Assembly (NCBI GenBank): GCA_049976445.1
Contig: JBMFIF010000002.1
Coordinates: 5,115-69,114, forward strand
Reading direction: 5' to 3'
Length of the DNA stretch: 64,000 nt
DNA from: Thermoprotei archaeon
GTDB taxonomy: Archaea; Thermoproteota; Thermoprotei; Gearchaeales; WAQG01
The stretch's first letter is position 1, and every line of letters begins with the position of its first letter. The position numbers were made by a program, and so were the translations under genes. Positions 3,667 to 52,317 of the stretch are shown piece by piece. The notes beneath the pieces are model-generated. The model was not told the DNA's origin. It worked only from the letters and a program-made list of their open reading frames with translations, and searched no databases.

Positions 3667-3686
3667 TCCATATTATGCACCTAGTT

Positions 3687-4325: not shown

Positions 4326-4565
4326 TTATTTATCACCAAATCTATGATAACAAAATACTAAAATAAAAGAGAAGTATTTTGCATACCTCAAAGCATAAAT
4401 GAAAATATGCTATAAAATGTTCATTAAATAACAGCAAAACATTTCATGTATGGGTTATAAAATGGGAATGAAGCATTATGATAAGCAATAAATTAGTTTA
4501 GAATTATTCGTACGTTAAACACTACAAAATCTCGTGTACTTTAAAAAGACACTCATTAGCTTATT

Positions 4566-6228: not shown

Positions 6229-6231
6229 TCT

Positions 6232-29036: not shown

Positions 29037-29139
29037 TGGTTGGATTATCCAATCAAGTATTTAAACTTTTTGTATCCTCATGAAGATTAAACAATATGTC
29101 AGAAACGTTAGCTTTAAATTCTTTGGTTGGATTATCCAG
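29037..29139. promoter_or_regulatory. direct repeat of the palindromic motif tGGTTGGATTATCCA in a divergent promoter
   Basis: Copies at 29037-29052 and 29124-29139, 15/16 identical, with core TGGAT-T-ATCCA palindromic. One copy abuts the start of the minus-strand gene. The other overlaps the TTG start of the binding-protein gene. Confidence 0.4.
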
Positions 29140-30383
29140 ACTTGGTGAATAACTTGAGTGATAGGAATACTCGTTACTTATTAAGTCTAATAATTATAAT
29201 AGTGATAGTACTGGGAGTTACTATACCTCTTTATATGGAAATTAATTCTTTAAGAGATGAAATTTCTAGATTACGTAATGATATATCAGCACTTAGTTTA
29301 AGTTCTAAGCAACTTACCTCACAGTTTAATAGTAGTCTCACACAATTAAATGCAGCTTATAAGAGCCTTGAAGATAGGTATAATAAATTATTTCAACAGT
29401 ATTCATCATTGTCTGAAAGTATTAAGTATCCTTTTACAATTACTGATGCTCTTGGAAGAACTGTAACGATAGTTTCAAGGCCAGTTCGAGTTATAAGTAC
29501 GGCACCTAGTGTGACAGAAATGCTTTTTGCTATAAATGCAGAAAAACTTATTGTAGGTGTTGATAAGTATTCAGATTATCCGCCTACAGTAAAAGATTTA
29601 GTTAAAAATAGTACAATTAAGCTGGTTGGTGGTTTTTCGACTGTTGATGTGGAGGCTATTGTAGCACTAAAGCCTGATATTGTATTTATGACACCGGGCG
29701 TGCAAACACCTTTCGTATATAGGTTAGCAGAACTTGGACTAACCGTCGTCGCTTTAAAGGAAGATAGTATATCGGATGTGTTTGATTCGATAATGCTCGT
29801 AGGGAGAATTCTTGATAAGATTGATGGGGCATTAAACGTTGTCGCATCTATGAAGTCTAAAATCACTTATGCGTTCTCAAAGGTTGAGAATTATATTAAA
29901 TCTGTTAATATTACAAGGGTTAAAGTGTATTGGGAAGTATGGCCTGAACCAATATATACCGTTGGTTCACAAAATTTTATAAATGATATAATTACACTAG
30001 CAGGAGGGGTTAATATTTTTGGTGATATAAAATCAGGCTATCCAGTCGTAAGTTCTGAGGAAGTTATAAACAAAACTCCTGATGTTATAATAACAACTGA
30101 TCATGGTGGGGTTTATGGATCGCCACAGGATGTATTAAATATGATCAGGAATAGAACTGGATGGAATGTAATACCAGCTATAAAAAGTAATAGAGTTTAT
30201 GTGTTAACGGGCCAGTTTGGGTCTATGTTTATAAGGCCTGGTCCAAGAGTTGCAGATGCAATTCTTCAACTTGCCGTAATATTATATCCTGAGGCATTTG
30301 GTATGAGTAAAATCATGATACCGAACATAATAAGCACATCGTTTAACGTTACAACATATATTAGTTTGTTAATTGTTTCATAA
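29127..30383 (+). CDS. ABC transporter substrate-binding protein, class III (BtuF/FecB-like), membrane anchored
   Basis: 418 aa with a TTG start. An N-terminal TM helix and coiled-coil linker precede a periplasmic-binding-protein fold (TAPSVTEMLFAI...IVGVD), and the C-terminus is hydrophobic. Confidence 0.6.
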   Translation: MDYPDLVNNLSDRNTRYLLSLIIIIVIVLGVTIPLYMEINSLRDEISRLRNDISALSLSSKQLTSQFNSSLTQLNAAYKSLEDRYNKLFQQYSSLSESIKYPFTITDALGRTVTIVSRPVRVISTAPSVTEMLFAINAEKLIVGVDKYSDYPPTVKDLVKNSTIKLVGGFSTVDVEAIVALKPDIVFMTPGVQTPFVYRLAELGLTVVALKEDSISDVFDSIMLVGRILDKIDGALNVVASMKSKITYAFSKVENYIKSVNITRVKVYWEVWPEPIYTVGSQNFINDIITLAGGVNIFGDIKSGYPVVSSEEVINKTPDVIITTDHGGVYGSPQDVLNMIRNRTGWNVIPAIKSNRVYVLTGQFGSMFIRPGPRVADAILQLAVILYPEAFGMSKIMIPNIISTSFNVTTYISLLIVS

Positions 30384-31410
30384 TACAATGAGCAGTAATT
30401 ATATACAAAGGAGATATTCCCGCCTTATTTTTTCTGTTATTGTTCTAATCATGTTAGTAGGAGTTTTAAGTATATTATCCATTAGTGTTGGTTCTGCGTT
30501 TATAAATCTGCCGGAATCTTTAAAAGCTTTGGTTGATTCTGATAACGTTGATGTATATACAAGAATTATAATATGGGAGATTAGAGTTCCTAGGACATTA
30601 AGCGCTATTTTTATAGGAATGTTGATGGCTTTAGCTGGGCTTTTTATGCAGACTGTTACTCTGAATCCTCTTGCTGATCCTTATTTAACAGGTATGGCTT
30701 CTGGTGCACTGTTAGGTGTTAGTATAACTATTGTGCTTTCACCTTTAATCGTTAGTCCTTATGTTATAGTTATCTCAGCGTTCTTTGGAGCCTTGTGCGC
30801 CATGATATTAACACTTCTAATTGCAAGTAAATTTCGCTTAGATCCAATAGGACTCATACTGGGAGGTGTTGCAGTCTCTATGATTTTTTACTCATTTTCT
30901 GCGATACTTCAGTTTATTGGAGGTGAAAAGATGGTTATGATAATTATATGGAGTCTTGGAAGCTTGAGTACTGCATCATGGTCAAGAACATGGTTTACTG
31001 GCATTACTGCAATAATTCTTATACCCCTTTCTATAATTATGTACAAATCGTTGAATGCTTTATTACTTGGTGATGAGAATGCACAAAGTATTGGTGTAAG
31101 TCCGAAGTTAACACGATCATTTTCCTTGCTAATATCCTCAATTGCCACGGCAATCTCAGTGTCAATGTTTGGTGTGATAGGCTTTGTTGGATTAGTAGCA
31201 CCTCATTTAGCACGTCTCGCATTAAGGAGCGGTGATCATTTAATAGTCATACCAGTCACATGTCTTGTTGGATCCGCTATCATGCTTTTAAGTGATGTGA
31301 TAGCTAGAATAATAGGTTCTCCTGGAGAATTTCCGTTAACTCCTATAATGAGTTTAATTGGTGCTCCGCTACTTATTTATTTAATGAGTAGGAGGTTTAA
31401 AAATGGTTAA
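30373..31410 (+). CDS. ABC transporter permease, FecCD/BtuC family
   Basis: 345 aa and polytopic with FecCD-type conserved regions. An 11-nt overlap with the upstream gene. Confidence 0.75.
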   Translation: MFHNTMSSNYIQRRYSRLIFSVIVLIMLVGVLSILSISVGSAFINLPESLKALVDSDNVDVYTRIIIWEIRVPRTLSAIFIGMLMALAGLFMQTVTLNPLADPYLTGMASGALLGVSITIVLSPLIVSPYVIVISAFFGALCAMILTLLIASKFRLDPIGLILGGVAVSMIFYSFSAILQFIGGEKMVMIIIWSLGSLSTASWSRTWFTGITAIILIPLSIIMYKSLNALLLGDENAQSIGVSPKLTRSFSLLISSIATAISVSMFGVIGFVGLVAPHLARLALRSGDHLIVIPVTCLVGSAIMLLSDVIARIIGSPGEFPLTPIMSLIGAPLLIYLMSRRFKNG

Positions 31411-32179
31411 ACTAATCATAGATAATCTTTCTGTTAATTATGGTTCAATAAAAGCATTAGAAGATATTAGTATAAAACTTGACAAAGGCATGATGGTATC
31501 AATAATAGGACCTAACGGTTCTGGAAAGACAACACTTCTCAGATCTATAGCAAGAATAGTAAAACCAGTAAAAGGTGTAATCTATATTGATGGAAAAAAT
31601 ACTAACGAACTATCATTAAAAGATCTAGCTCATCATGTATCATACACATCTACATTGAAAGTAAAAGAGGGTTTTGAACTCACAGTGGGCGATATAGTTT
31701 TTATGGGTAGATATCCAAGAACTGGATTTATGATGAGTCATACTGATGAAAGAATTGTGAACGATGTATTAAATAAGTTTCGCATTACTCATTTAATGAA
31801 TAGAAAAATAGATGAGCTTAGCGATGGTGAACGGCAAAAAACCTTTTTAGCAAGAGCCTTAGCTCAAGAATCAGAAATAATACTTGTAGATGAACCATTA
31901 GCGCATCTTGATCTAAAAGCACAACTTGAAGTCTTAAAAATACTTAAAAATGAAGCAAACGATGGAAAGCTTGTAATAATGACCTCACACGAGATAGACT
32001 TACCGATTAAATACAGTGATGTATTAATAGTAATGAAAAAAGGAGAAATATTAGCAGCAGGAAAACCTAATGAAATACTAACAGAAAAAATAATAGAAAA
32101 TGCTTATGGTGTTAAATGTCGTATAATCAAAGATAAAGAATATTCACTTATAGTACTTCTTGACACACTCAGTGATTAG
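31403..32179 (+). CDS. ABC transporter ATP-binding protein (BtuD/FepC-like)
   Basis: 258 aa with Walker A GPNGSGKTT, signature LSDGERQ and Walker B ILVDEP. Confidence 0.75.
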   Translation: MVKLIIDNLSVNYGSIKALEDISIKLDKGMMVSIIGPNGSGKTTLLRSIARIVKPVKGVIYIDGKNTNELSLKDLAHHVSYTSTLKVKEGFELTVGDIVFMGRYPRTGFMMSHTDERIVNDVLNKFRITHLMNRKIDELSDGERQKTFLARALAQESEIILVDEPLAHLDLKAQLEVLKILKNEANDGKLVIMTSHEIDLPIKYSDVLIVMKKGEILAAGKPNEILTEKIIENAYGVKCRIIKDKEYSLIVLLDTLSD

Positions 32180-32181
32180 TA

Positions 32182-33282
32182 ATGAAGGAATTAAAACAAC
32201 CAGTACACGGTGGTAGAGTATGGGATGCAGCAGAAAAACTCAACATAAACGTTGAAAAGATTATAGATTTTAGTACAAATACAAATCCATTAGGACCTCC
32301 AAAACAATTAATAACAACATTAATAAAAAATATTAACACTGTTGCTTATTATCCAGATCCTGACTATAGAACATTAAGGATGGAATTGGCAAGGTTTTAT
32401 AACATTAATGAAGAGAATATTATAGTTGGTAATGGTGCAACTGAACTTATACATCTATTTGCACAAACATTCATCTCAGAAAATGACAGAGTAATAATAC
32501 CAATACCCACGTTTGAAGAATACCAATATGCATCACAGAAAGTTAGCGCAAGAATTATTTATATAAAGTCAAAAAACAATATGCACATAAACATAGACAA
32601 AATAATATCAAAAATGAACAATACAAAGGTCATATTTGTATGTAATCCAAATAACCCAACAGGAATATTAGAAAAACAAGAAGATATACTCAATCTAATA
32701 AAAGAGGCTAATAAGAGAAACGTACTAGTTTTTCTTGATGAAAGCTTTATGGATCTAGTAGTTACAAAAAAGCCGTACACGTTAATAAGATCAGTAAACA
32801 TGTTTGATAATCTTTTTATAATAAGATCACTAACAAAAATCTTCAGCATACCCGGATTAAGGATAGGTTTTGGTGTATCTTCAAAGTACTTAATAAAAGA
32901 ACTTAATAAACATAAAATACCATGGAATGTCTCAACACTTATTGAAAAAACTATTCCAGAAGCACTAAAATATGCAAGACAATATCTAAAAACATCAAGA
33001 AAAATAATCAAACAAGAAAGAAACTATATGATAAGTGAACTATCGAAAATTGATGGTATTAAAGTAATAAGCGGTGATGCTAATTTTCTCTTCATAGATA
33101 TAAGTGAAACTGGACTCACATCATCAGAATTAGCAGATCAATTAATAAAACATCGTATACTAATACGAGATTGTAGCACTTTTACAGGACTGAACAACTC
33201 GTACATAAGAATAGCAATAAAGAAACACCGAGAAAACATACTACTAATAAATGCTCTGAAAACAATAGTGATAAGAAAATGA
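32182..33282 (+). CDS. cobD: class I/II aminotransferase-fold enzyme, probable L-threonine-O-3-phosphate decarboxylase (CobD/CobC-type)
   Basis: 366 aa with the HisC-like PLP lysine region SLTKIFSIPGLRIG. Its position between btuD-like and cbiB favours the cobalamin aminopropanol-arm enzyme. Confidence 0.55.
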   Translation: MKELKQPVHGGRVWDAAEKLNINVEKIIDFSTNTNPLGPPKQLITTLIKNINTVAYYPDPDYRTLRMELARFYNINEENIIVGNGATELIHLFAQTFISENDRVIIPIPTFEEYQYASQKVSARIIYIKSKNNMHINIDKIISKMNNTKVIFVCNPNNPTGILEKQEDILNLIKEANKRNVLVFLDESFMDLVVTKKPYTLIRSVNMFDNLFIIRSLTKIFSIPGLRIGFGVSSKYLIKELNKHKIPWNVSTLIEKTIPEALKYARQYLKTSRKIIKQERNYMISELSKIDGIKVISGDANFLFIDISETGLTSSELADQLIKHRILIRDCSTFTGLNNSYIRIAIKKHRENILLINALKTIVIRK

Positions 33283-39559: not shown

Positions 39560-40354
39560 TTATTTCCTAGTTACATAGAAGCTGGTTCCATCTGTAGTTA
39601 ATGGTGATGGTTGGGCTAACACTTTTCCATTGTTACTTACCATTATTACATATTCGTGTGGTAGGTCTCCTATTCGAGCAGTTATGCCACCGATGGTAGC
39701 ATAGTTTGTGTTCTGAATGTTTGTATAATCATAACCGTAATATGCTGTTCCAAAATTAGCGAGTATAGTTAAGCTTCCAGCTATTGCTGGCCTTTCTTCT
39801 ATCCATTCTGCAGATAGCATGGATGAAGTGTAGTTAACAAGTATTGAAAAGTGTTCGTTTTGTGTTAAATCATTTAGTGTTATGTTCCATTCTTGTGTTG
39901 TAGTATTTATTATTCTTACCATGAATATCATGGCAAACATATAGTCTCCTGGTTTCACAACATAACCTGATATTCTGGTTTCCGAAGCTGGCAGTAATTC
40001 ATACCATGCATAATAGAAAGTTTGGCTTTGCCATGAATCGGATTCGGTACCTGTTTGGATTAAAGAATTATCTCCTGAAAAGAAACCACCTATACCAATC
40101 CACTGAGATGAGTAAACAGGCTTTTTGCTTGGTTGGACTGTTTGAACTATCCATGAACCATTAACTGCAGTAACGGAGGGTGTGGGATTAGTAAAGCTTG
40201 ATGCTACAACATATCCTGCCCAATTTAAAGAATATACTTGATTTTTCGGAACATTATGCGATGCTGTTACATCTGTAGTTGGTGAGAAGCTCGGTATTAA
40301 AAGTAGTAATATTACTATGCTTATTATGTTCACGTAACGATTTTTATAGCTCAT
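39560..40354 (-). CDS. secreted peptidase G1 (eqolisin / glutamic peptidase) family
   Basis: 264 aa with an N-terminal signal/TM. SLNWAGYVV, QWIGIGG (catalytic Gln region) and SAEWIEERP (catalytic Glu region) match scytalidoglutamic-peptidase motifs. Confidence 0.65.
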   Translation of the reverse strand: MSYKNRYVNIISIVILLLLIPSFSPTTDVTASHNVPKNQVYSLNWAGYVVASSFTNPTPSVTAVNGSWIVQTVQPSKKPVYSSQWIGIGGFFSGDNSLIQTGTESDSWQSQTFYYAWYELLPASETRISGYVVKPGDYMFAMIFMVRIINTTTQEWNITLNDLTQNEHFSILVNYTSSMLSAEWIEERPAIAGSLTILANFGTAYYGYDYTNIQNTNYATIGGITARIGDLPHEYVIMVSNNGKVLAQPSPLTTDGTSFYVTRK

Positions 40355-40542: not shown

Positions 40543-41436
40543 ATGATAGTTAATGAGCTGGCGAATAGTTCGATGATACTTAAAACAATAGAGGAGAATT
40601 ATGATAGTTTCATAGAAACTGTTCTGAGCGATGTGAGCAGTGAGATTAGTAGGTTGTCTATTCATTTCGTTGGATTACAAAATTTTGCAACACTCTTTAC
40701 TGATTCTAGATTTCCATATTCAATTTTTAAAACAATTCTCTTCGTGTTAACCAGCGTACCTTTAAAGGTTATTTTTGGAATTATAATAGCATTTCTTTTT
40801 TCAAGTCCACTAATTTACGGTAGAAAAATTATGCGAGCAATGTTATTAATTCCATGGGCTCTACCAGTACTCCTCTCAGTAACAACATGGAGAATGCTAT
40901 TTGCCCCCGATGGCCCATTAGCCTTGATTCTCAGTCAGATGTTAAATTATAAATTCAGCATCTATACTCATGAATGGGATGCATTTTTTGTGTATAATAT
41001 TGTAGAGATGTGGTTAGCATACCCATTCATAATGACTATAACAATGGGTGCAATAGCAAGTGTACCTAAAGAATTTATAGAGGCATCATATATGGATGGG
41101 ATAAGCGTTTTCTCTCGGTTTAGAAAAATCATGTTACCTTTAACAATTAAACCTATACTCTTTGCAACAATACTTACTAGTGGCGCATCGTTACAGGCGT
41201 TTATGGTACCGTTACTTATAAACGATGGTGGACCAACAACTATGATAAAGTTACCAGGATTTACTTCAACCCTTGGAAATGCAAACGAATTAATGATCCT
41301 TTATGGATACAATAGAGCCTGGCTAGATCAACAATATGGTCTTTCGACAGCTACATTTCTCGTAGTCGTCGCTATTCTATTCATATATGCATTAATATGG
41401 TTTTACTTCATCTATAGAAGAGGTACCACAAAATGA
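40543..41436 (+). CDS. sugar ABC transporter permease (MalF/UgpA-like), apparently lacking TM1
   Basis: 297 aa with EAA-like EASYMDGIS. The first ~40 aa are hydrophilic and unrelated to a permease N-terminus. Only 5 TM segments follow the FVGLQNF region. Confidence 0.65.
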   Translation: MIVNELANSSMILKTIEENYDSFIETVLSDVSSEISRLSIHFVGLQNFATLFTDSRFPYSIFKTILFVLTSVPLKVIFGIIIAFLFSSPLIYGRKIMRAMLLIPWALPVLLSVTTWRMLFAPDGPLALILSQMLNYKFSIYTHEWDAFFVYNIVEMWLAYPFIMTITMGAIASVPKEFIEASYMDGISVFSRFRKIMLPLTIKPILFATILTSGASLQAFMVPLLINDGGPTTMIKLPGFTSTLGNANELMILYGYNRAWLDQQYGLSTATFLVVVAILFIYALIWFYFIYRRGTTK

Positions 41437-42287
41437 AAGTATTCAAATTTAGGTATTATATTATCAAACTGACATTAACATTAGTTGCAATACTAATAGT
41501 CTTTATGATTCTTTATCCATTGATGTATGATATCATGACTTCAATAGTAAGTGGACAAACATTAGTGACAAGCATTAATGATATGACAAAACGTGGTCTA
41601 TCAGTATCGCATTATTTATCAGCCATAACTGATCCACATTTCATTAACGCAACAATAATAAGTATTATGGTAGCATTAGTGAATATCATATTATCACTAC
41701 TAATAATAACACCAGCAGCCTATGCATTTTCAAGGTTTGAGTTTTTCGGAAAGAACACATTACTAATACTTTATCTAATACTTAGTCAAATAGGTGGAGG
41801 GTTTGGAATTGCAAGCGTAATAGCATTGTACGTATTTTTATTAAAACTTAATGCATTAGGGTTACCTGTAATAGGTAATCCATTAGTCTTACCAATCATA
41901 TACACATCCACAGCAGTGCCATTCCAGACGTGGTTAATCAAAAACTATTTTGACTCATTACCTAAAAGTTTAGATGAAGCTGCATTTATAGATGGTGTTA
42001 GATGGAATGATATAATATTCAGAGTGATCTTGCCAGCATCAAAACCAGCTATTATAATCATAGCATTATTTGCATTCATGGGGGCATGGGGAGAATTCAT
42101 AATAGCCAATTTTCTAAGAATTGAGACATTAGCGGCATACATTTATGAAACAGCCACAGGACAAACAATATATTGGAGTGACTTCGCTGCAAGAACACTA
42201 CTTTTCGCAATACCAATAATCATAATGTACGTGTTGACACAAAAATACATAGGAGAAGCAATGAAGTACGGAGCTGGAAAACTCTAA
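41433..42287 (+). CDS. sugar ABC transporter permease (MalG/UgpE-like)
   Basis: 284 aa with 6 TM segments and an EAA loop LDEAAFIDGVRWNDIIFRVILP. A 4-nt overlap with the upstream permease. Confidence 0.75.
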   Translation: MKVFKFRYYIIKLTLTLVAILIVFMILYPLMYDIMTSIVSGQTLVTSINDMTKRGLSVSHYLSAITDPHFINATIISIMVALVNIILSLLIITPAAYAFSRFEFFGKNTLLILYLILSQIGGGFGIASVIALYVFLLKLNALGLPVIGNPLVLPIIYTSTAVPFQTWLIKNYFDSLPKSLDEAAFIDGVRWNDIIFRVILPASKPAIIIIALFAFMGAWGEFIIANFLRIETLAAYIYETATGQTIYWSDFAARTLLFAIPIIIMYVLTQKYIGEAMKYGAGKL

Positions 42288-42389
42288 ATACTTATAACTA
42301 AAATTAAAATCTTATTCTTTATACTAAGTAAGAGTTACCTGTGTTTATGTTTATATTTATTTGTGTTTTTGTGTTATGTGGTGCTAGAA

Positions 42390-43319
42390 ATGGTTAGAAT
42401 TTTGGTTACTGATCAAGTTCATGAAAGTGGTTTAAAATTGCTCAAAGAAAATAATTTTGATGTCGATGTTTTACTGGGAATTGATGAGGGTAATCTTGCG
42501 AGAATTGTTGGTAATTATGATGGATTGATCGTAAGAGGGAGGACTAAAGTTACTGAAAGAGTTTTAGAAAATTCTGGTAAACTTAAAATCATAGTACGAG
42601 CAGGTGTAGGACTTGATAATATAGATTTAAATGTTGCAAAGAAAAAGGGTATTTTTGTATATAATACACCTGGTGCGCCTTCTGTCGCTGTCGCGGAATT
42701 AACTGTTGGTTTAATTGTATGTGTTTTGAGAGGTATTGGTAAGGGTTATTATGATCTCAGGCATGGTAAATGGAGTAAAAATGAACTCATGGGTCGTGAG
42801 ATTCGTGGTAAGGTTGTGAGTATTATAGGGTTTGGGAGGATCGGTTATGAAGTTGCTAAACGTCTTAAAGCGTTTGATGCAAAAATTGTAGTCTATGATG
42901 TAGATAGGAATAGAGAAATTCTTGCAAGAAGTCTTGGTGTTGATTTTGCTAATAGTTTAGAAGAAGCTCTTTCAGTTGGTGATATAGTTACACTTCATGT
43001 GCCTTTATTGCCTGAGACTAGACATTTAATTAATGCTGAGAAAATAAAAATTATGAAACGCGGGGCTTATTTAATCAACGTAGCACGTGGTGAAGTTATT
43101 GATGAAAAAGCTCTACTTGATGCACTAAAGAACGGTCAGTTATCTGGCGTAGCATTGGATGTTTTTTCAGTTGAGCCTCCTAAAGAACCTTGGGAGCTTG
43201 AATTACTTTCTCTTCCAAACGTGATCGCAACGCCACACATAGGAGCTCAAACAATTGAAACTCAAGAGGCTGAATCATTAGAAGCTGCAAAAATCATTAT
43301 AGATTTCTTTAAAAAATAA
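42390..43319 (+). CDS. D-isomer-specific 2-hydroxyacid dehydrogenase (D-3-phosphoglycerate dehydrogenase-like)
   Basis: The NAD-binding GFGRIGYEVAKRL motif and the catalytic His region are present. ATG 42390 (MVRILVTD) is preferred over the GTG at 42363, which lies in a GT-rich tract. Confidence 0.75.
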   Translation: MVRILVTDQVHESGLKLLKENNFDVDVLLGIDEGNLARIVGNYDGLIVRGRTKVTERVLENSGKLKIIVRAGVGLDNIDLNVAKKKGIFVYNTPGAPSVAVAELTVGLIVCVLRGIGKGYYDLRHGKWSKNELMGREIRGKVVSIIGFGRIGYEVAKRLKAFDAKIVVYDVDRNREILARSLGVDFANSLEEALSVGDIVTLHVPLLPETRHLINAEKIKIMKRGAYLINVARGEVIDEKALLDALKNGQLSGVALDVFSVEPPKEPWELELLSLPNVIATPHIGAQTIETQEAESLEAAKIIIDFFKK

Positions 43320-43432
43320 TTTTTTATTAAATTTTGCAAAATTAAAGTGGTTATTGGTTTGCATATACATGATTGTTATTTTATCGTTTGTAAAAATATA
43401 TTAATCAATTAATTTATTTTCAGTATGCTGAA

Positions 43433-44152
43433 ATGAGTGTTGTAGAGCTAAAGAATGTGACAAAGGTTTATAGGTTGCCTGGCGCACCAGAGGTTTGGGC
43501 ATTAAGGAATATAAACTTGAAAGTAAGGAGAGGGGAATTTCTATCTATAATGGGACCTTCAGGTCATGGGAAAACTACATTGCTTCAGATTATAGGTCTG
43601 CTTGATAAACCAACATCTGGAACTGTTATTATAAATGGTGTTGAAGTTAATGGTCTTAGTGATAATGAGCTTGCAAGGTTTAGAAATAAAGTATTAGGAT
43701 TTGTTTTTCAACAGTATAATTTGATTAATAGAATGAGTGTCCTAGAAAATATAGAGATACCATTAATAATAAGAGGGATTCCTAGGAGTAAAAGAATTGA
43801 GATTGTGAAAGAAGCATTAATGATGGTTGGCGGGGATCTTACATGGCTTACTAAAAAGCCTTCTCAATTATCAGGTGGTCAACAACAGAGAGTAGCAATA
43901 GCAAGAGCTATCGTGGGTAATCCAGAAATAATATTAGCGGATGAACCGACTGGTAATCTCGATTCAGAATCTTCTAAGATAATAATGGAAACATTTGTGA
44001 AACTTAATAAAACTGGTAAAACAATAATCATGGTCACGCATAATCCTGAAATTGCCATGTGTAGCGAAAGGATAGTATTAATTAGAGATGGTATCATAGT
44101 TGGTGAAGAAAGATCAGACCCTAGTAAAAGCATTCTTTATGTTAAACGTTAA
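43433..44152 (+). CDS. ABC transporter ATP-binding protein (LolD/MacB/FtsE-like)
   Basis: 239 aa with Walker A GPSGHGKTT, signature LSGGQQQR and Walker B ILADEP. Confidence 0.8.
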   Translation: MSVVELKNVTKVYRLPGAPEVWALRNINLKVRRGEFLSIMGPSGHGKTTLLQIIGLLDKPTSGTVIINGVEVNGLSDNELARFRNKVLGFVFQQYNLINRMSVLENIEIPLIIRGIPRSKRIEIVKEALMMVGGDLTWLTKKPSQLSGGQQQRVAIARAIVGNPEIILADEPTGNLDSESSKIIMETFVKLNKTGKTIIMVTHNPEIAMCSERIVLIRDGIIVGEERSDPSKSILYVKR

Positions 44153-44220
44153 CCTCCTATATTTTGTGAAGATAAACTAAAAACTTAAATTTATCTGAGA
44201 ATTATTAATTTGAGTAAAAA

Positions 44221-47200
44221 ATGAAAAATCGATTTATTGCTGCATTTTTGATGATTTTTATTTTATTGGAGATTCCGCTGTATCTTCAATCTGTGTTTGC
44301 TTCAGGTAATTTTACGTTAGTATCTACATTATGGGGTTCTCAATCTAACCCTCAAAAGGTTTATCCTGGAAGTAGTAATGTAAGATTTATTGTTCTAATT
44401 AGGAATGATTATTCAAATTTAGTCAGTGTTGTTGGGTATCTCAGCTTACCTTATGGATTTTCTGGTACGAATGGTGGAAATGTTTTAAGTGCTGTCGGTT
44501 ACATATCAACAAATAACACTATAAGATATAATATAAATAAGGGGGAAATCTTTGAACTTGATTATTTCTTAAATATAGCTGGCTTTTTAGCTCCGGGCAC
44601 TTATTACGGTAATTTGACCTTGAATTTTACTAACTCTACATTTTCAAACGGTAATTTTACTATGAATGTGCCAATGACAGTTAGTAGTTTTCCAACATTT
44701 AATTTTCAAATTATTAGTGTATACTGGTCAACAACTGGAGGTACTATAGTTAACGCTGTACCTGGCACAAGAAACGTTGAACTTAACGTTATTCTTAAAA
44801 ATATTGGCACTGACAATATCAATAGTATATCGGCTCAACTAATTCTAAACAAGCCATTTAATCCTAATAAAGTTATGAGTAGTGCACAGCAAGTAAATAA
44901 AGGCAGCACGTTTACGCTAACGTTTACAGGTATTTCAATTGATTTTGCCAGCGCACCTGGTAACTATATGGAACAGTTAATGATTAACTCTACTTTTATT
45001 GGATACGGAGGAGCTACTAGCACATACACAAATATGATTAATTTATCATTAGTAATAGGGAACTATTCAAATGCAGGAATACAAATTGTTAGTGTTCAGT
45101 GGAATGGTGGTGAAAAGGTTTATTCCGGATCTAGGAAAGTTTCATTAGATGTAGTAATACAAAACATGGGAAGCTACACAATAAGTAATATGTTATCACG
45201 TATAATTCTTCCTAGTGGTTTCACCAATGCATATGGTTCAAACATAATTAATACAACATCTACTGCTGTCCTAAATTACGGAAATAGTATTACATTAAAC
45301 TTTAGTCCAATATACATAGGTGACTCTACAAAACCTGGTATTTATTATGTTAGACTTGTTATTATGTCAGTTGTTTCAATAGATAACACAAATCTGATAG
45401 CAAAGGATAATTTTACCATACCGATTTATGTTAATGATTTAATAACACCAATTGATCTGGTAAGTGTAGATTGGTCTTATAATGGAAATCCAGCACCTGC
45501 TTTACCAGGATCGCAATATGTAATACTGTCAATCACTTTTGTAAATAGAGGAGAAGATACATATTCAGGTTTTCAACCGAGGTTAATACTACCCCGAGGT
45601 TTTACGGTCTTTGGAACTAGTGCAGATCCTGGTCCTATTACGCCAGGTTCAATATTTACGGTTAGATCTTATGTGAATGTTAGTGATACCGTATTACCAG
45701 GGAATTATATTGCGAATTTAACTTTAAGGTTTAGTGTAAATCCATCAGGTATAAATACTGTTGGATCGATGAACTTCTCAATACCACTTTACATAATGGA
45801 TCCTAAAGGTTTTGATACCAAAATATCCATAGTAAATGCTTATTGGGGCACTGGTACCCCTAATCCAGTTTATCCAGGATCTAAAAATGTACCTTTAACT
45901 GTTGAGATTGTTAATGTTGGACTTTATACAGCACAAGCTGTTCAAATAGGTATTTCTGCTCCTGAAACTTTCACACCAATAATTAATTCAACTAGCGTCA
46001 CATCTACATTACCTTCAGGTTCCTTTGCCTCTGCTGTCTTGTATTTTGATATATCACCACATACTACTCCAGGATCTTATGTGTTCTTAGTGAACGTGAA
46101 ATATTTTATAAGTGTTTATGGTGCAACAATATATAGATATGTTAAATTTGTTTTTGTATTGTATGTATCTCAACCAACTTCAGGGCCTCCATATATTAAT
46201 GTAGTTAATTCGGGTTGGCTTAATAATTATCCTGTATATCCTGGGACTCAGAATGCTACATTCAGTTTAACTATAAACAATGAGGCGCCATTTCCGATTG
46301 CTGGGATTCATTTAAAACTTGTTTTACCTAGAGGATTTACACCTGGAGTCAATGGAGTAGAATCATACATAGGAGGCCCAATACAGCAATGGCAAACAGC
46401 GTCTGCAAGTTTTAGTATAAATGTTAATGCGAGCACATTACCTGGATTATATACTGCATCCTTAAAAATTGATTATATTTTATTGAGTGGAGGAAATAAC
46501 TTAAAGAATAGCGAAGAGAAAGAGATAGTACTACGTGTAAACTCGTTAAAAGGTTTTGAATATATTACATATAATTGGGTCGGATATGCTCCGAACCCGG
46601 GTAATGTAGGAGCTACTTTGATTGTTCTTGTCAGAAATACAGAGGTGCCAACTATGAAGGGAATCGTTGCAGAGATTCAGTTACCAAAAGGTTTTAACTC
46701 TACAATAACTGGGACAAGAGTTTTTAATGTAACACCTTATATATTTACTTCTATAAATCAGGTTCAGAATTTATTACAACGCACACCTGTTTCTAGCTTA
46801 CAATTTATGGTTCCTCAACAAGCAACACAAGCAAATCTCGGAGATTTCCTGGCAATACCTATATCAGTATCTATTAACAAAAATGTAACCCCAGGCTATT
46901 ATCCGATAATAATAAAGCTTAATTTTTTAGATCAATGGAATGTTGTTAGGAACGTTATAGTTAATGGAGACTTCTGGCTACCAGGTTCATCAAACATTAT
47001 TCAAGTTGTAGAAGGAAAATCTAAGTTATTAGTTGGTAATAGGACTGCAGAAATCAATATATATCTTAGGAATAATGGTTCATCGTCAGTTTACAACGTG
47101 TATGTTGCAATAACTAACATGGAAGCACCAATCTCGATATCGTCAACTGTGAAATATATACCTATAATTGGGCCCAATTCTGAAGTGCCCGTATCATGGG

Positions 47201-47799
47201 TTGTATCCGTAAGCCCTTCAATCAGTTATTTGGGGTCAGTACCGATAGTACTTTCAATTACTTTTGTAGATCCTGCAGGCTTCAGGCATAATATTACTCA
47301 GACAGCAATTCTTTTCATAGAAGGTCTTGCTGAAATAAAGTTCGTTGATGTAACCGTGGAGCCAAAACCTATCTATTTAGGTTCCACAATAACAATATCG
47401 GCAACATTAATCAACTTAGGAACTTATAAGGCCGGAAACGTTGAGGCATGGTTAGAGGGTAATGACATAATTACACTTTCTAATTCATATACGTTTGTGG
47501 GTGATATAGATGTTGGTTCGCAAATACCGATAAGTTTATCAGCTAATATAAGCAACAAAGCTGTAAATAAAACAATCGTGTATATAGTAATTAAATTTAA
47601 GAATGTTTTTAATGAAATAACGACTGAACGGTATCCGATAGTTCTGAACATTACATATAAACCTCCACAGACGCAAACACAAGCGCAGAGTCTTATTTTA
47701 CCAAATGTATACGAACTTTTAATAATTGTAGCTACTGTTATATTCCTATCAGTAAGTGGATATATGATCTATCTCTTGTATAAGAAAACAAAGCATTAA
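44221..47799 (+). CDS. giant cell-surface protein with about 9-10 tandem CARDB/COG1361-like beta-sandwich repeats and a C-terminal membrane anchor
   Basis: 1192 aa with a signal peptide. It has recurring ~110-aa units, each carrying V/YPGS.NV...L.V.I.N.G (for example VYPGSSNVRFIVLIRN and VYPGSKNVPLTVEIVNVG). A C-terminal TM helix is followed by a KKTKH tail. Confidence 0.6.
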   Translation: MKNRFIAAFLMIFILLEIPLYLQSVFASGNFTLVSTLWGSQSNPQKVYPGSSNVRFIVLIRNDYSNLVSVVGYLSLPYGFSGTNGGNVLSAVGYISTNNTIRYNINKGEIFELDYFLNIAGFLAPGTYYGNLTLNFTNSTFSNGNFTMNVPMTVSSFPTFNFQIISVYWSTTGGTIVNAVPGTRNVELNVILKNIGTDNINSISAQLILNKPFNPNKVMSSAQQVNKGSTFTLTFTGISIDFASAPGNYMEQLMINSTFIGYGGATSTYTNMINLSLVIGNYSNAGIQIVSVQWNGGEKVYSGSRKVSLDVVIQNMGSYTISNMLSRIILPSGFTNAYGSNIINTTSTAVLNYGNSITLNFSPIYIGDSTKPGIYYVRLVIMSVVSIDNTNLIAKDNFTIPIYVNDLITPIDLVSVDWSYNGNPAPALPGSQYVILSITFVNRGEDTYSGFQPRLILPRGFTVFGTSADPGPITPGSIFTVRSYVNVSDTVLPGNYIANLTLRFSVNPSGINTVGSMNFSIPLYIMDPKGFDTKISIVNAYWGTGTPNPVYPGSKNVPLTVEIVNVGLYTAQAVQIGISAPETFTPIINSTSVTSTLPSGSFASAVLYFDISPHTTPGSYVFLVNVKYFISVYGATIYRYVKFVFVLYVSQPTSGPPYINVVNSGWLNNYPVYPGTQNATFSLTINNEAPFPIAGIHLKLVLPRGFTPGVNGVESYIGGPIQQWQTASASFSINVNASTLPGLYTASLKIDYILLSGGNNLKNSEEKEIVLRVNSLKGFEYITYNWVGYAPNPGNVGATLIVLVRNTEVPTMKGIVAEIQLPKGFNSTITGTRVFNVTPYIFTSINQVQNLLQRTPVSSLQFMVPQQATQANLGDFLAIPISVSINKNVTPGYYPIIIKLNFLDQWNVVRNVIVNGDFWLPGSSNIIQVVEGKSKLLVGNRTAEINIYLRNNGSSSVYNVYVAITNMEAPISISSTVKYIPIIGPNSEVPVSWVVSVSPSISYLGSVPIVLSITFVDPAGFRHNITQTAILFIEGLAEIKFVDVTVEPKPIYLGSTITISATLINLGTYKAGNVEAWLEGNDIITLSNSYTFVGDIDVGSQIPISLSANISNKAVNKTIVYIVIKFKNVFNEITTERYPIVLNITYKPPQTQTQAQSLILPNVYELLIIVATVIFLSVSGYMIYLLYKKTKH

Positions 47800-47809
47800 G
47801 TGATTATTT

Positions 47810-49027
47810 ATGATAAGGGTTAGTGATATTTTTAGATTCGCTTTCTCGATACTAACTGAAAAGAAATTAAGAGCTATTTTAACTATTATAGGAATAGCAA
47901 TAGGCCCTGCTGCTATGGTCACGATAATAGGTACAACCCAAGGATACTCGTTAACTATAGTAAATAGTCTCACTTCATTAGGCCAGAACATTATTGTAGC
48001 TTTTCCTGAGAAAGGTTATAGTTTTACTGATAATACAGTTAACACTCTTAAATCATTAAGCTATGTGAAAACAGCAATACCATTTTATACTTCACAAGGT
48101 ATAATAAAAAGATCTGACGGATCACAACTTACTGTTTCAATTTATGCCACTAACCTAGATGAATTGTTTAAAGCCGTTTCTAGTTTAGAACTTGAAAGTG
48201 GTATTATTCCTAATCCTACATCATACACATCAGGCATATTAGGTCATGATATAGTATATAAGGATAATAATAAGTTGATCAATGTGGGCGATTCCGTAGG
48301 AATAAAGATTGTCATTGCAAAAGGTAATAATTTAGAAGTAAAAAATATCAATGTAAGGATTTCTGGTATATTAAGTAAATACGGCAGTGCATTAGTCCTT
48401 AACCCTGATTCAACACTATTTTTGCCTCTTCAAGCCGGTCGCTCATTACTATCGATGAACAACTACAGTGGAATATTGGTCGTTGCAGTAGATAGTTCGC
48501 ATGTGGTGAATATAGTCGATGAAATCAAAAATAAATATCAAGATTTAGTAACCACATTTGCATTCCAACAGATTGCTAATATAATTAGTTCAGTCGTAGA
48601 TACATTAAACTTTCTGCTTTTTGCTTTATCTTCATCAGCATTTAGTGTAGCAGTTACTGGAACAATGGCTACCATGTTCACATCTGTGATAGAAAGAAGC
48701 AAAGAGATAGGCGTGCTTAAAGCAATGGGATATTCGAATGCGCTTGTTCTATTGTTAATCACAACTGAGGCACTTTTAATGAGTTTATTAGGGGGCATAA
48801 TGGGAGTAATAATTGGAGCTATTGGAGCTAACATCCTTTCTTCGGCAGGTTCGTTTGTAATTAGGGGAGTAAGCGAATCAATAACAATAAAAGCAGGGCC
48901 TTTAATAACTATTGATCTAATATTAAGGTCTATAGGTATGGCTATAGTTGTTGGTATAATAGGGGGTTTCATACCAGCTTATAGAGCATCTAAGATACAA
49001 CCAGCTATTGCACTTAGATACGAGTAA
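47810..49027 (+). CDS. ABC transporter permease, FtsX/MacB-like
   Basis: 405 aa. An N-terminal TM helix and a large extracytoplasmic domain are followed by a C-terminal 3-TM FtsX-type domain. Confidence 0.7.
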   Translation: MIRVSDIFRFAFSILTEKKLRAILTIIGIAIGPAAMVTIIGTTQGYSLTIVNSLTSLGQNIIVAFPEKGYSFTDNTVNTLKSLSYVKTAIPFYTSQGIIKRSDGSQLTVSIYATNLDELFKAVSSLELESGIIPNPTSYTSGILGHDIVYKDNNKLINVGDSVGIKIVIAKGNNLEVKNINVRISGILSKYGSALVLNPDSTLFLPLQAGRSLLSMNNYSGILVVAVDSSHVVNIVDEIKNKYQDLVTTFAFQQIANIISSVVDTLNFLLFALSSSAFSVAVTGTMATMFTSVIERSKEIGVLKAMGYSNALVLLLITTEALLMSLLGGIMGVIIGAIGANILSSAGSFVIRGVSESITIKAGPLITIDLILRSIGMAIVVGIIGGFIPAYRASKIQPAIALRYE

Positions 49028-49038
49028 TAGTTTAATTT

Positions 49039-50127
49039 TTAAGTATCTTTCTCCATGCTTTTTATTTTCTTTAATATGTAACGGTCTATTATTGCTGTTA
49101 GACCGTATTTACTGAATGCTTCAAGTTCAGCTTTTAGGCCTATCTTCTTAAATGCTCTAAGTTGTTCTGCCCATATGCCATCGCTATATCTAGGGTCTCT
49201 TTCTAATGTTATTAAACGTTGTACATCGATAGTGTTTAGTTTAAGTGCAGGTAAGTCGTATTTTTTAATATCTGTTGCCCATATGCCCACCCACTTGGCA
49301 TTAGGTGTTGCTAGAAATGGTATATGAGCTGCTTGTGCTGATCCTGATGTGATGACCCTTGCGATGTGCATTCCCCATGGATCCGCATCGGTAAGAATGT
49401 ATACCGGTAGTCCTAATTCTTCATGTAATCTTCTTATGACAATTCTGGTAAATCTTGGTGCTTGGCCTCCGGTATCTATAAGGATTGCATTTAGTTTGTT
49501 GTAAAGCCCTTCTTCTATGAATCTTCTAAACATTGCTCCTTTTTCTACAGCTATAACCATTCTTGCGTTTGTTTCGATGAATTTTGCTGTTGCAATAGAA
49601 AGTCCTATGTTTTTGCCATCAGGATCTGACATTAAGTTTACCTTTAATCCTGCGTGGCTTTCAGGTGTTGTATATTCAATGGTCAAATCACCAAATATCG
49701 AGCTTTTCTCTTCAGGTAGAATGTTAAATGTTTCGCGTGGTACACCTAGTATGCTTTCTAGCTCAACAACTACATTATCTGATTCATCTTGTTCATCAAA
49801 CTTGATTGCTTCGTCGTTGAATGAATGATAGTATAGATCTCTGAGACTGCACGATTTGCCCTTATCTACTAGATTTGTTTTTGCAAAAGCTGCAACCCAC
49901 ATTAATCTTGCGAATGCCTTTGATTGTTTTATGTTTGAACTGCTCCTTATTGACATTTTTTCTCCTAATTTTACTACTCCTTTTTCTGGGTCATATATGA
50001 TGTTTGAAACGCTTCTTACAGGCAGTTTTATTTTTGGATATAAACCAGATTCTAACTGTTTATATACTTCAAGACCAAGAAGTCTTAATCGTTCCGATAT
50101 ATTCATTCTATCGTTATTCATACTCAT
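49039..50127 (-). CDS. top6A: DNA topoisomerase VI subunit A (Spo11-like)
   Basis: 362 aa with a CAP/5Y region (SLRDLYY) and a Toprim domain with acidic residues (ILTDADPWG). Confidence 0.8.
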   Translation of the reverse strand: MSMNNDRMNISERLRLLGLEVYKQLESGLYPKIKLPVRSVSNIIYDPEKGVVKLGEKMSIRSSSNIKQSKAFARLMWVAAFAKTNLVDKGKSCSLRDLYYHSFNDEAIKFDEQDESDNVVVELESILGVPRETFNILPEEKSSIFGDLTIEYTTPESHAGLKVNLMSDPDGKNIGLSIATAKFIETNARMVIAVEKGAMFRRFIEEGLYNKLNAILIDTGGQAPRFTRIVIRRLHEELGLPVYILTDADPWGMHIARVITSGSAQAAHIPFLATPNAKWVGIWATDIKKYDLPALKLNTIDVQRLITLERDPRYSDGIWAEQLRAFKKIGLKAELEAFSKYGLTAIIDRYILKKIKSMEKDT

Positions 50128-51683
50128 TGTTTTGCTACCTCCTCTATTTGAGTTTCAGTAAGTACTGGTTCAGGTAATCCTGTAAGTTCAGAAGAATACT
50201 TGGCAATGAGCTTTAAATATTTACTTAAAACATTGAGTCGTGTACGATTTATCTCTTCAAAGCGTTTCTTATTTAGATATGCAGATAAGTGTCTTGCATT
50301 TTCTCTTAATCCAAGCTCTATTTCTCTTGCTACCTCAGGCTGTTCTGCGATGTACTCTTTTCCTACAGTCTTATAAGGTATTTTTGTGGAACAAATGTGG
50401 ACAAAGAATGCGATGGGTTCATTGTAGATTTTAATCTTGTAATTGTTCCAGTCAATCCTTTTAATAACTTTCATTGAGACATCACTGTATACATCATAAA
50501 GGAGTGGAATTTTATTAGCAAACCTGTAAAGATTTACCTCACCTTCGCCTGCAGGTTGTATTTTTCCTCCATAAGCAATTGCAGTTTCAACAATAAATGG
50601 ATGACCTTCATAAGATGATGGAGGTCTTTGAACAGCATGCACAAATTCTGCACCTGTAGATTCTTTAATGCCAATTTTTAATAGGTCTTCACCTATGGGT
50701 GAAAGACCAGATGCATCAGGAGGTAAAAATTCGCTAAAGTTTTTCATTGCCGCAGAAAGCTTTACTATCATATCCTGGTTTAATTTTTCAACACGCAGAT
50801 CTGGCTGAAAACCTACATACTCTAGGAATTTTTCTGCTTTCTTAGGACCCACACGCTGAAAATTCTCTATTAAAAATTCTTTTAGAGTCATACCTTTAGA
50901 TTTCGTTATCAACCTTTTTAATAACTCTACATCTACACCATGCGGATGTGGTAAGATTTCATGTGGTTTCTTTGGCATATTTTCTGTCTTTCTTTCAAAC
51001 GTATACATCACACCATCTGGATCAATAAACCTGATCGATGCGTAAGGTAGTATCATAGATGTTTGCCACAAATACTCTATTATACGATTTTTTGCTTTAT
51101 AATAATCTCCTATAAAAGAAAAGCTTATCATTGTTCCATGCCAATCATCCGTGTTCTCAAGTATTTTTCTTTTAAGTTGTAAAGGTTTATTTCTGGTTAT
51201 GTCTATCATTAATTCATAGTAATAAATAAACCGAGATCCTAATGTTGCGGATGCGACTTCAACTGTAGTATTAGTGGTAATTTGCCCATAAAGTATAGCC
51301 ATTTTGCCGCCTAGGCCAAATAATCCTCTGGCTTGTCTTAACCTGTATTTAGAACCATAAAAAACTTGCCCAAACGCTGAAGGAATATGCTCTTGAGGAA
51401 CTCCACCACCATTATCTATAACACGTATTTTAAGTAATTCTCCATTCTCCGTCATTTTGCTAGTAAGCACTCCGTTAGTGTCATCAACTTTTATCATGCG
51501 TATTTCAACATCAGGAGGTATTCCATTATTCTCACATGAATCTAAAGAATTCTCGACAAGTTCCCTGAGTATTGTATATGTAGCTCTGGCAGAATTGTCA
51601 AAGCCCGCTATTTCCTTGTTTCTATAGAAAAAATCAGCAGGAGAAATGGATTCATACTTTTCTTCTATCAAATCAAGCTTCAC
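50124..51683 (-). CDS. top6B: DNA topoisomerase VI subunit B (GHKL ATPase)
   Basis: 519 aa with Bergerat-fold motifs (ELVENSLDS, IDNGGGVP, GLFGLGGK). A 4-nt overlap with top6A. Confidence 0.85.
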   Translation of the reverse strand: MKLDLIEEKYESISPADFFYRNKEIAGFDNSARATYTILRELVENSLDSCENNGIPPDVEIRMIKVDDTNGVLTSKMTENGELLKIRVIDNGGGVPQEHIPSAFGQVFYGSKYRLRQARGLFGLGGKMAILYGQITTNTTVEVASATLGSRFIYYYELMIDITRNKPLQLKRKILENTDDWHGTMISFSFIGDYYKAKNRIIEYLWQTSMILPYASIRFIDPDGVMYTFERKTENMPKKPHEILPHPHGVDVELLKRLITKSKGMTLKEFLIENFQRVGPKKAEKFLEYVGFQPDLRVEKLNQDMIVKLSAAMKNFSEFLPPDASGLSPIGEDLLKIGIKESTGAEFVHAVQRPPSSYEGHPFIVETAIAYGGKIQPAGEGEVNLYRFANKIPLLYDVYSDVSMKVIKRIDWNNYKIKIYNEPIAFFVHICSTKIPYKTVGKEYIAEQPEVAREIELGLRENARHLSAYLNKKRFEEINRTRLNVLSKYLKLIAKYSSELTGLPEPVLTETQIEEVAKQ

Positions 51684-52317
51684 CTCCTAAACTTTTTAAT
51701 GATCTTATTTTCTGAGCTGACTTAAAGCGTTCTAAGAATCTATAAACTGCAGTATGCGGCGAACCATCAATCAACATTTCTATAGCCCTTTTAGCTGCTT
51801 GAAGTTGCTCAAAATTACCTATTATGACTACCTCATTATTGCTAATACTAATACTTGCACCAGTAAACTCGATTATTGTGGATTTAGTCTTACCACCAGC
51901 TCCGATAATTCTCCCCTTCACTCTAGTAATGTCATTAGACGATGATAAATAGTCCTTAAGATTTATTATTTCCATAAAAGTATCAGGGTCTCGTAACCTT
52001 AATGTATCGTTTGGATCAAATCCGTATCCGTAGGCTTGGATCATTTCTCTTGCTCTTATTATATCGCTCTGTCTAGAATCTTTATCAACATCAATAGTAA
52101 TTTCACCAGTCTCTCTCTTTACAGTAATTTTGGTTCCAGTAACTTTTTCTACCTCACGAATAAACCAAGAATCTTTACCTAGTATAGATTTAAGACGAGT
52201 CTCAGGAATACTAATAACAATCCTTGAAGGATACATACTGCTCACTGCCAATCCAAAATAAATTATACTTAATCTTATTTTTATCTTGTTACCACAACTG
52301 TTTAAAGGTACAGTCAA
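51673..52317 (-). CDS. KH-domain RNA-binding protein (Dim2/Krr1-like, two KH modules)
   Basis: 214 aa. RIIGAGGKTKSTI carries the GxxG loop of a KH type I domain, and a second KH-like segment lies N-terminal to it. Confidence 0.5.
   Translation of the reverse strand: MTVPLNSCGNKIKIRLSIIYFGLAVSSMYPSRIVISIPETRLKSILGKDSWFIREVEKVTGTKITVKRETGEITIDVDKDSRQSDIIRAREMIQAYGYGFDPNDTLRLRDPDTFMEIINLKDYLSSSNDITRVKGRIIGAGGKTKSTIIEFTGASISISNNEVVIIGNFEQLQAAKRAIEMLIDGSPHTAVYRFLERFKSAQKIRSLKSLGGEA

Follow-up and report, generated by a model that had tools for sequence, protein, structure and literature searches.

An archaeal operon that places a giant immunoglobulin-like repeat protein between the ATPase and permease of a MacB-type ABC transporter

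Closest described systems and the window transporter

ATP-binding cassette (ABC) systems of the MacB family are a model case of cytoplasmic ATP driving mechanical work outside the membrane, and to our knowledge the characterised examples are all bacterial. Mechanotransmission and dependence on a partner, whether MacA, Spr0693, YknX or the partners of FtsEX, are established for this family (PMC8277102). We found no physiological role described for any archaeal member, though the ATPase MJ0796 has long been a structural model ABC ATPase, and the physiological function of MJ0796 is unknown (PMC8277102). Here we analyse a stretch of 64,000 nucleotides from an uncultured, heat-loving Thermoprotei archaeon (assembly GCA_049976445.1, contig JBMFIF010000002.1, positions 5,115 to 69,114), which we call the window. 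At window positions 43433-49027 on the forward strand, three genes in the same orientation encode an ABC ATPase, a 1192-amino-acid (aa) secreted repeat protein, hereafter the giant, and a permease. The open reading frames (ORFs) lie exactly where a preliminary description of this DNA had placed them, and its proposal that a MacB/LolD-type ATPase and an FtsX-type permease bracket the giant is borne out by the Pfam, NCBIfam, PDB and structural matches given below. What is new here is the class of protein that accompanies a MacB-type ABC system as its apparent dedicated partner.

By analogy, the nearest operon logic to that of the trio appears to lie with the Gram-positive MacAB-like pumps, namely Spr0693-0694-0695 (PDB 5XU1/5XU0) and the YknXYZ proteins of Bacillus subtilis YknWXYZ. 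Like the archaeal locus, these pumps combine a separate ATPase with a four-helix permease that carries a MacB periplasmic core domain (PCD), they are encoded in three-gene operons with a single-pass extracytoplasmic partner, and they have no outer membrane to cross. Among solved structures, their proteins are also the nearest in sequence to both transporter proteins of the window. The partner in these pumps is an adaptor with an N-terminal anchor, an alpha-hairpin, and lipoyl and beta-barrel domains. This periplasmic adaptor protein forms hexamers (PMC8277102). The archaeal partner differs in being a C-terminally anchored chain of nine immunoglobulin (Ig)-like sandwiches with no adaptor-family Pfam match, and its gene differs in lying between those for the ATPase and the permease. 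Pfam gave no match to MacA/HlyD adaptors in the giant, in the neighbouring genes scanned (40543-43319 and 49039-52317) or in a further ten of the larger ORFs from other parts of the window.

The ATPase gene (43433..44152, +) encodes a 239-aa protein that Pfam, NCBIfam, PDB and motif evidence assigns to the MacB/LolD/FtsE-like nucleotide-binding type. It matches ABC_tran (6.5e-34), and its Walker A, Q-loop, signature, Walker B with catalytic Glu, and H-loop are intact, with the motif sequences GPSGHGKT, LSGGQ, IILADEP and VTHN. The top NCBIfam models are DarD, MacB, LolD and FtsE, each of which is matched below its equivalog cut-off (FtsE, 208 bits vs 264.85; LolD, 212.9 vs 307.75; MacB, 221 vs 966). 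The closest solved relative is Spr0694 of Streptococcus pneumoniae (5xu1_A, 1.7e-69), followed by the archaeal, LolD/MacB-like MJ0796 of Methanocaldococcus jannaschii (5e-67; PDB 1F3O/1L2T), and MacB and LolD structures are also among the PDB relatives.

The permease (405 aa; 47810..49027, +) was assigned to the MacB type through Pfam, PDB sequence matches, an AlphaFold2 (AF2) model and Foldseek. Both of its Pfam matches are above cut-off, with MacB_PCD at aa 23-241 (1.4e-16, 61.8 bits) and FtsX at aa 274-398 (5.5e-17, 62.4 bits). The model, which was built from 24 homologues (predicted local distance difference test, pLDDT, 79.7; predicted template-modelling score, pTM, 0.56), contains helices at 19-57, 252-295, 310-346 and 368-394 and a mixed alpha/beta region at 61-251. 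These features correspond to a layout in which an N-terminal helix and TM1 (aa ~19-57) precede an extracytoplasmic MacB_PCD (~58-250) and TM2-TM4 (~252-394). The PDB sequence matches are Spr0695, MacB and LolE, and to MacB and LolE chains the permease aligns over its own full length. In NCBIfam, lolCE scored 68.8 bits vs a cut-off of 362 and MacB 58 vs 966, and the permease had no match to the FtsX equivalog.

Structural comparison of the permease model places it nearest to MacB. Its best Foldseek match is MacB of Acinetobacter baumannii (5gko, template-modelling score, or TM-score, 0.73), followed by LolE and Spr0695 (0.61 each) and by FtsX chains (0.40-0.43). Mechanotransmission is presumed to be common to MacAB-TolC and the archaeal system, but MacB has its ATPase fused to the permease, whereas here the ATPase is separate and MacA, TolC and an outer membrane are absent. 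FtsEX, a non-transporting type VII ABC system that drives EnvC, PcsB, CwlO or RipC, offers the closest analogy for an actuated extracytoplasmic partner. However, the window permease is less FtsX-like than MacB-like and has a full MacB_PCD, where FtsX has a smaller extracytoplasmic domain that lacks the Sabre subdomain. The giant is all-beta, whereas FtsEX works with soluble proteins of coiled-coil type that regulate peptidoglycan hydrolases, and peptidoglycan itself is absent from the lineages that carry the module. LolCDE shares the fold (TM-score ~0.6) and a LolD-like ATPase, but the giant has neither lipobox nor Cys and the lolCE score is far under cut-off; in archaea, neither a LolA-like acceptor nor an outer membrane would be expected. 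Because of its Pfam domains, intact ATPase motifs, solved relatives and MacB-like permease model, the transporter is, as far as sequence and modelled structure indicate, a bona fide type VII (MacB-superfamily) ABC system, and by the same evidence it is not an equivalog of FtsEX, LolCDE or MacAB. The conserved fold suggests that it would use ATP for mechanotransmission without passing a substrate through the membrane.

Linkage of the three genes across archaea

The preliminary description had also proposed that the giant is an operon-encoded partner of the MacB/FtsX kind, and the linkage of the three genes in relatives, which it had named as a test, clearly agrees with this proposal. Among non-redundant loci with enough sequence, the gene immediately downstream of the giant is that for the permease in 20/20, and the one immediately upstream is that for the ATPase in 19/20. 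The order ATPase-giant-permease recurs in Thermoprotei, Bathyarchaeia, Nitrososphaeria and the cultured Pyrodictium abyssi, the complete genome of which carries the trio around PABY_04100. Contigs that encode giants at 44, 33 and 30 % identity have the same order within unrelated flanks, and flanking genes vary from locus to locus. The order was also kept, wherever the contig reaches far enough, in 12 genome loci recovered through conserved peptides from a 9-sequence subset of the alignment. When the search started from the permease, a giant was found directly upstream in a Sulfolobales metagenome-assembled genome (MAG; 1192 aa), in Ignisphaera (1571 aa) and in a Desulfurococcaceae MAG (at least 1064 aa). 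A protein homologue search with the giant returned 32 proteins, and the same 32 with an alignment profile; the Sulfolobales giant of locus L017 was not among them. Even for four distant and shorter relatives (650, 979, 1013 and 1098 aa), an FtsX/MacB_PCD permease is encoded directly downstream in 4/4 and the ATPase directly upstream in 3/4.

The genes are also closely packed. In the window, 68 nt of A/T-rich sequence (44153-44220) separate the ATPase gene from the giant gene, and 10 nt separate the giant gene from the permease gene. Across all 10 loci with gene calls (10/10), the giant-permease junction ranges from -38 to +12 nt and includes several 4-nt overlaps of the ATGA type, which is a pattern typical of translationally coupled subunits. 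Relative to the window proteins, the ATPase is the most conserved (59-69 % identity), followed by the permease (42-57 %) and the giant (28-44 %). Taken together, these observations support the conclusion that the giant gene is a dedicated, co-inherited partner gene and not a chance neighbour.

Two loci depart from the usual spacing or gene structure. In a Nitrososphaeria locus (L009, 3247-3904), ~660 nt lie between the ATPase and giant genes, compared with 0-150 nt elsewhere, and the gap may hold an extra small gene or an insertion. In a distant module (L023, 8299-9524), the permease was called as two ORFs, one with MacB_PCD (213 aa) and one with FtsX (193 aa), so that it is either truly split or interrupted by a frameshift or an error of assembly.

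Regulatory genes accompany some of the modules. In two unrelated versions of the module, that of Ignisphaera (L018, 1721-2215, -) and the distant one mentioned above (L023, 3753-4220, -), a divergent gene for a PadR-family regulator sits immediately before the ATPase gene, and in L002, L017 and L020 the module is followed by genes for regulators of the AsnC/Lrp type. These genes may hint at regulation of a stress or efflux type, although the pattern is inconsistent.

PadR-type regulators often control bacterial efflux or detoxification genes, and their divergent position upstream in two loci fits an alternative in which the three genes share a transcription unit and little else. Under this alternative, the ATPase and permease would form a stand-alone efflux or peptide-resistance pump of the SalXY/MacB kind, and the giant would be an ordinary adhesin or an S-layer (surface-layer)-associated glycoprotein. 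The top models of the ATPase and permease, which are antimicrobial or efflux-type (DarD, MacB, bacteriocin exporters), point the same way, as do the giant's exclusively generic Ig-like domains and its 27 N-x-S/T sequons, which fit a glycosylated surface protein. However, a merely regulatory link is unlikely to have lasted from Thermoprotei to Bathyarchaeia, Nitrososphaeria and beyond (giant identity 25-44 %), with gene order and overlapping junctions kept while the flanks changed. Moreover, the 9-repeat subfamily of the giant shows no repeat turnover, unlike typical adhesins. We consider independent functions of the transporter and the giant improbable.

Anatomy and family of the giant protein

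The giant gene (44221-47799, +) encodes a signal peptide, an all-beta body and a single C-terminal transmembrane helix, which is the layout of a type I membrane protein. The giant is 100 % identical to ACP5GU_00880, a hypothetical protein from a Thermoprotei archaeon MAG. The signal peptide spans aa 1-27 (44221..44301, +; MKNR...SVFA, followed by SG after the putative cleavage site), with a hydrophobic segment at aa 5-23, and in the AF2 model the N-terminus forms a helix (2-21) that leads into a low-confidence stretch. At the other end, a Thr/Gln/Pro-rich linker (aa 1146-1162), a transmembrane helix (~1163-1185) and a basic tail, KKTKH, precede the stop codon (47656..47799, +). The helix is indicated by a hydropathy peak at 1158-1176 and by an AF2 helix at 1162-1191, and the linker by low model confidence at 1149-1167. 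All 21 aligned homologues keep the linker, helix and basic tail; F1175 is invariant and I1183 is conserved in at least 90 %. These features agree with the earlier proposal that the giant is a secreted protein with a single C-terminal membrane anchor.

The presence of a Sec-type signal peptide means that the ABC system is not needed for the giant to cross the membrane. This point bears on whether the locus is a type 1 secretion adhesin operon of the LapA/LapBCE or SiiE kind, in which a giant is exported by its own ABC transporter. The resemblance, a giant repeat protein encoded beside ABC components, is superficial. The window giant has an N-terminal Sec-type signal and a C-terminal transmembrane anchor in place of a C-terminal secretion signal, and its only Pfam or NCBIfam families are NPCBM_assoc, CARDB and DUF11. 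In addition, the transporter is of the four-helix MacB type and has its ATPase on a chain of its own, where type 1 secretion uses a fused six-helix exporter, and no membrane-fusion protein accompanies it. These findings effectively refute type 1 secretion.

The anchor also bears on whether the giant is the cargo of the transporter. After Sec export, the transporter could extract or release the giant, pass it to the S-layer, or aid its folding or assembly, much as a Lol system would if its substrate were held by a helix. LolCDE pulls proteins that are anchored in the membrane out of its outer leaflet (PMC8277102), the permease model is equally close to LolE and Spr0695, and strict linkage together with the conserved transmembrane helix and linker would suit a dedicated substrate. 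Nevertheless, a full transmembrane helix followed by a cytoplasmic Lys/Arg tail would be much harder to extract than acyl chains, and the giant has no lipobox and no Cys (cysteine count 0), which, with a lolCE score of 69 bits vs a cut-off of 362, speaks against a Lol system. The tight translational coupling suggests that giant and permease are made in equal amounts, and this would be unusual if one were the substrate of the other. We therefore regard a cargo role for the giant as unlikely.

The body of the giant is tiled fully by nine repeats (mean length ~124 aa, range 110-137) of two types. Seven A-type (NEW3/NPCBM_assoc-like) beta-sandwiches, D1-D7, occupy 44302..46953 (+) and were delineated by HHalign, tiling with a repeat hidden Markov model (HMM), AF2 and Pfam, with bounds at aa 28-159 (D1), 160-281 (D2), 282-407 (D3), 408-530 (D4), 531-653 (D5), 654-774 (D6) and 775-911 (D7). 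Two membrane-proximal B-type (CARDB-like) beta-sandwiches, D8 (aa 912-1035) and D9 (1036-1145), follow at 46954..47655 (+), as delineated by HHalign and Pfam. The earlier expectation of 9-10 beta-sandwich repeats of ~110 aa thus stands as to the repeats themselves, while their number, length and division into two types are now revised. Its CARDB label fares less well. The best Pfam match of the giant is NPCBM_assoc/NEW3 (62.1 bits, cut-off 24.4), CARDB is borderline and confined to the last repeat, D9 (aa 1043-1121; 22.8 bits vs a cut-off of 22.7), and DUF11 (17.3 bits) is under its cut-off.

To delimit the repeats, the 21-sequence family alignment was cut into nine segments at the W..(V/Y)PG(S/T) motif, and the segments were compared profile to profile with HHalign. 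D1-D7 proved mutually homologous (probability 95-99.7 %, E 1e-8 to 1e-26, ~80-120 columns). D8 and D9 matched each other with a probability of 92.5 % and reached up to 96 % against D4/D5. In contrast, column-shuffled control segments (n = 72 comparisons) reached a maximum of 8.6 % with a median of 0.2 %. The recurring (V/Y)PG(S/T)xNV motif noted in the preliminary description is visible in the nine-repeat alignment, in the form W..(V/Y)PG(S/T)xNV.L.V.I.N.G, along with LP.GF and PG.Y motifs. A repeat HMM tiles the protein end to end, and the AF2 model contains nine beta-sandwiches (mean pLDDT 82; ~80-93 per A-type domain).

Self-BLASTP of the giant detected no repeats and Tandem Repeats Finder detected no tandem repeat in the DNA, which taken alone could mean that the repeats exist only in the alignment and that the giant ORF encodes no true modular protein. 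Those searches came back blank because the repeats are too old for such methods. The contrast between HHalign values of up to 99.7 % and controls of at most 8.6 %, the nine modelled sandwiches, and an ORF that is conserved at full length in dozens of lineages refute an artefact, and the sequence comparisons indicate that the repeat homology is real but ancient.

The last A-type repeat, D7, is longer than the others, with a helix at 845-853 and a disordered insert at 855-864 (pLDDT <50; insert region aa 846-864, window 46756-46812). The insertion is family-wide, and no other part of the ectodomain departs from beta structure. A long last A repeat is kept in all architectures, and the insertion may serve as a hinge or as a site of contact.

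Proteins with CARDB, NPCBM_assoc (NEW3) or DUF11 domains, among them archaeal proteins labelled COG1361 S-layer domain, resemble the giant in belonging to the same Pfam families and in being secreted, repetitive and C-terminally anchored. These names are domain labels without a known mechanism, and we found no link to a MacB-type transporter in the open-access literature. At E<=0.01 the giant matched 0 families of NCBIfam, which we take to include S-layer and PGF-CTERM models, and no PGF-type motif is visible before its transmembrane helix. Its sequence thus places it neither in a curated archaeal S-layer family nor among archaeosortase substrates, although sequence alone would be no bar to an S-layer role. 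The 27 sequons compare with 19 expected from composition, an excess too modest to count as evidence for a glycoprotein, and we set it aside. A PDB sequence search with the giant found no relative.

The family of the giant is large. A profile search of 1.84 billion cluster representatives (clusters at 50 % identity) returned 4251 relatives at E<=1e-3, of which 1791 reach E<=1e-10 and 340 reach E<=1e-30. The repeat HMMs tile every family member, with repeat numbers from ~4 to 15 and B-B-transmembrane helix as the commonest ending. Close relatives follow one pattern, in which n A-type repeats, the last of them longer, precede two B-type repeats and the transmembrane helix, for totals of 8, 9, 10, 12 or 15. 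Among the top 150 representatives, A7BB (30), A10BB (23), A5BB (10) and A8BB (7) dominate, and a hydrophobic helix and basic tail close the C-terminus of almost every one; distant members match best at the B-B-transmembrane end (profile positions ~940-1196). Members of the 9-repeat subfamily keep a length of 1185-1214 aa down to 28-30 % identity. Because length is near-constant and conservation evenly spread, the repeat array gives the impression of an ancient structure that stays fixed in each lineage, and not of a fast-evolving adhesin.

A possible mechanotransmission machine and its setting

Based on these findings, we tentatively favour the reading that the trio forms one type VII ABC machine, with the giant as a dedicated extracytoplasmic partner docked through its B-B-transmembrane end; we hold it with slightly less than even confidence. 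In such a machine, as in MacB, the 239-aa ATPase would act as a dimer that drives a likewise dimeric permease (405 aa, four helices), and the PCD would switch between open and closed states as ATP is bound and hydrolysed, carrying nothing across the membrane. The giant would be exported by Sec and held by its C-terminal helix, so that its conserved end, comprising the two B-type sandwiches, the linker and the helix, would sit beside the permease. The variable A-type stack would extend outwards, over several tens of nanometres if fully extended, to or through the S-layer. Movements of the PCD could then act on or along this stalk, such that a pseudo-periplasmic substrate is expelled in the adaptor-like manner of MacAB-like pumps, or they could alter the conformation of the stalk and of whatever it holds in the envelope. 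Analogy with the bacterial MacB-family systems suggests both a contact between giant and permease and a part in surface assembly or remodelling. The docking role of the B-B-transmembrane end, the stoichiometry and the output function are likewise matters that we infer.

Several observations weigh against this reading of the trio. Foldseek comparison of the giant with the PDB gave only generic Ig-array matches (hydin-like, mastigoneme and alpha-2-macroglobulin MG domains) at TM-scores <0.2, and on the model its fold is shared with no known MacB partner. The pTM of the AF2 model is 0.37, so the mutual arrangement of the domains is uncertain and the extended stalk is an assumption. In the close family, conservation is near-even over all nine domains, with no peak next to the membrane. 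In L020 no ATPase gene adjoins the module (none in 2.7 kb upstream), and the ATPase may be encoded elsewhere. Finally, the pairwise identities of the three proteins do correlate (r = 0.91-0.96), but such co-divergence is expected of any co-inherited genes. The alpha-2-macroglobulin matches had offered a candidate identity for the giant, which we rejected given that the Foldseek results include no thioester or other functional domain.

L020 is of further interest as a Nitrososphaerales-type variant (2782-7141), in which a 1013-aa giant has a PPC (pre-peptidase C-terminal) domain and mixed A/B repeats, with an FtsX permease encoded adjacently.

The window around the module is AT-rich (GC ~0.30-0.39) and otherwise mostly housekeeping in content. 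Read directly from the sequence, the intergenic region 5' of the module (43320..43432, +) contains a T6 run (43320-43325) immediately 3' of the stop codon of an upstream 2-hydroxyacid dehydrogenase gene, and a TATA-like A/T-rich stretch (~43392-43403) 30-40 nt 5' of the ATPase start codon. The former is a putative terminator and the latter a putative promoter, roles that the base composition of this genome makes provisional. Downstream of the module lie convergent genes for topoisomerase VI A and B, and the rest of the window encodes isoleucyl-tRNA-synthetase-like, CDC48, Peripla_BP_2/FecCD-type ABC importer and GH3 glycosidase proteins. We found no second copy of the module in the window, a tRNA scan and Rfam gave no match over its length, and the PADLOC anti-phage models gave only generic ABC/AAA and LolE-transmembrane similarities, with no match for the giant.

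Three other loci of the window are worth recording. A 264-aa ORF (39560-40354, -) matches Peptidase_A4 (Pfam, 2e-22), the family of eqolisin/G1 acid peptidases best known from fungi, and its occurrence in a Thermoprotei MAG may deserve note. An ordinary-looking ABC importer operon (29127-33282, +) consists of Peripla_BP_2, FecCD and ABC_tran genes, with a gene for a class I/II aminotransferase after them; these importer families typically take up iron chelates or cobalamin. A 460-aa ORF (12819-14201, +) is essentially unannotated, with weak, partial P-loop matches (cobW, 9.5e-07; thymidylate kinase, 1.4e-05).

Domain databases probably already show the three genes of the module as neighbours under generic names. 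Among open-access papers we found no description of the module, an absence that is not proof, and a review of archaeal dark matter does not mention it (PMC6393860). The module supplies an archaeal MacB-type transporter with a concrete, genetically linked partner, in a large family that extends over several archaeal classes and includes the cultured Pyrodictium abyssi. Should the giant prove to be no more than cargo or a bystander, what remains is a useful annotation of a conserved operon. A broader proposal, which we put forward as doubtful but worth stating, is that the trio represents a widespread archaeal envelope-spanning machine with a parts list that has no bacterial counterpart, in which a MacB-type motor is joined to an Ig stalk of lineage-tuned length that reaches from the membrane to the S-layer and is driven mechanically by cytoplasmic ATP hydrolysis. 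Such a machine would do in archaea what MacA-TolC conduits, or FtsEX as a driver of wall remodelling, do in bacteria, and it may be needed for S-layer growth, division or export across the pseudo-periplasm. If the partner is mechanically driven, it would represent a new way to build an envelope-spanning device from Ig-like beads and would offer a way into the question of how archaea with an S-layer pass material or force through the pseudo-periplasm.

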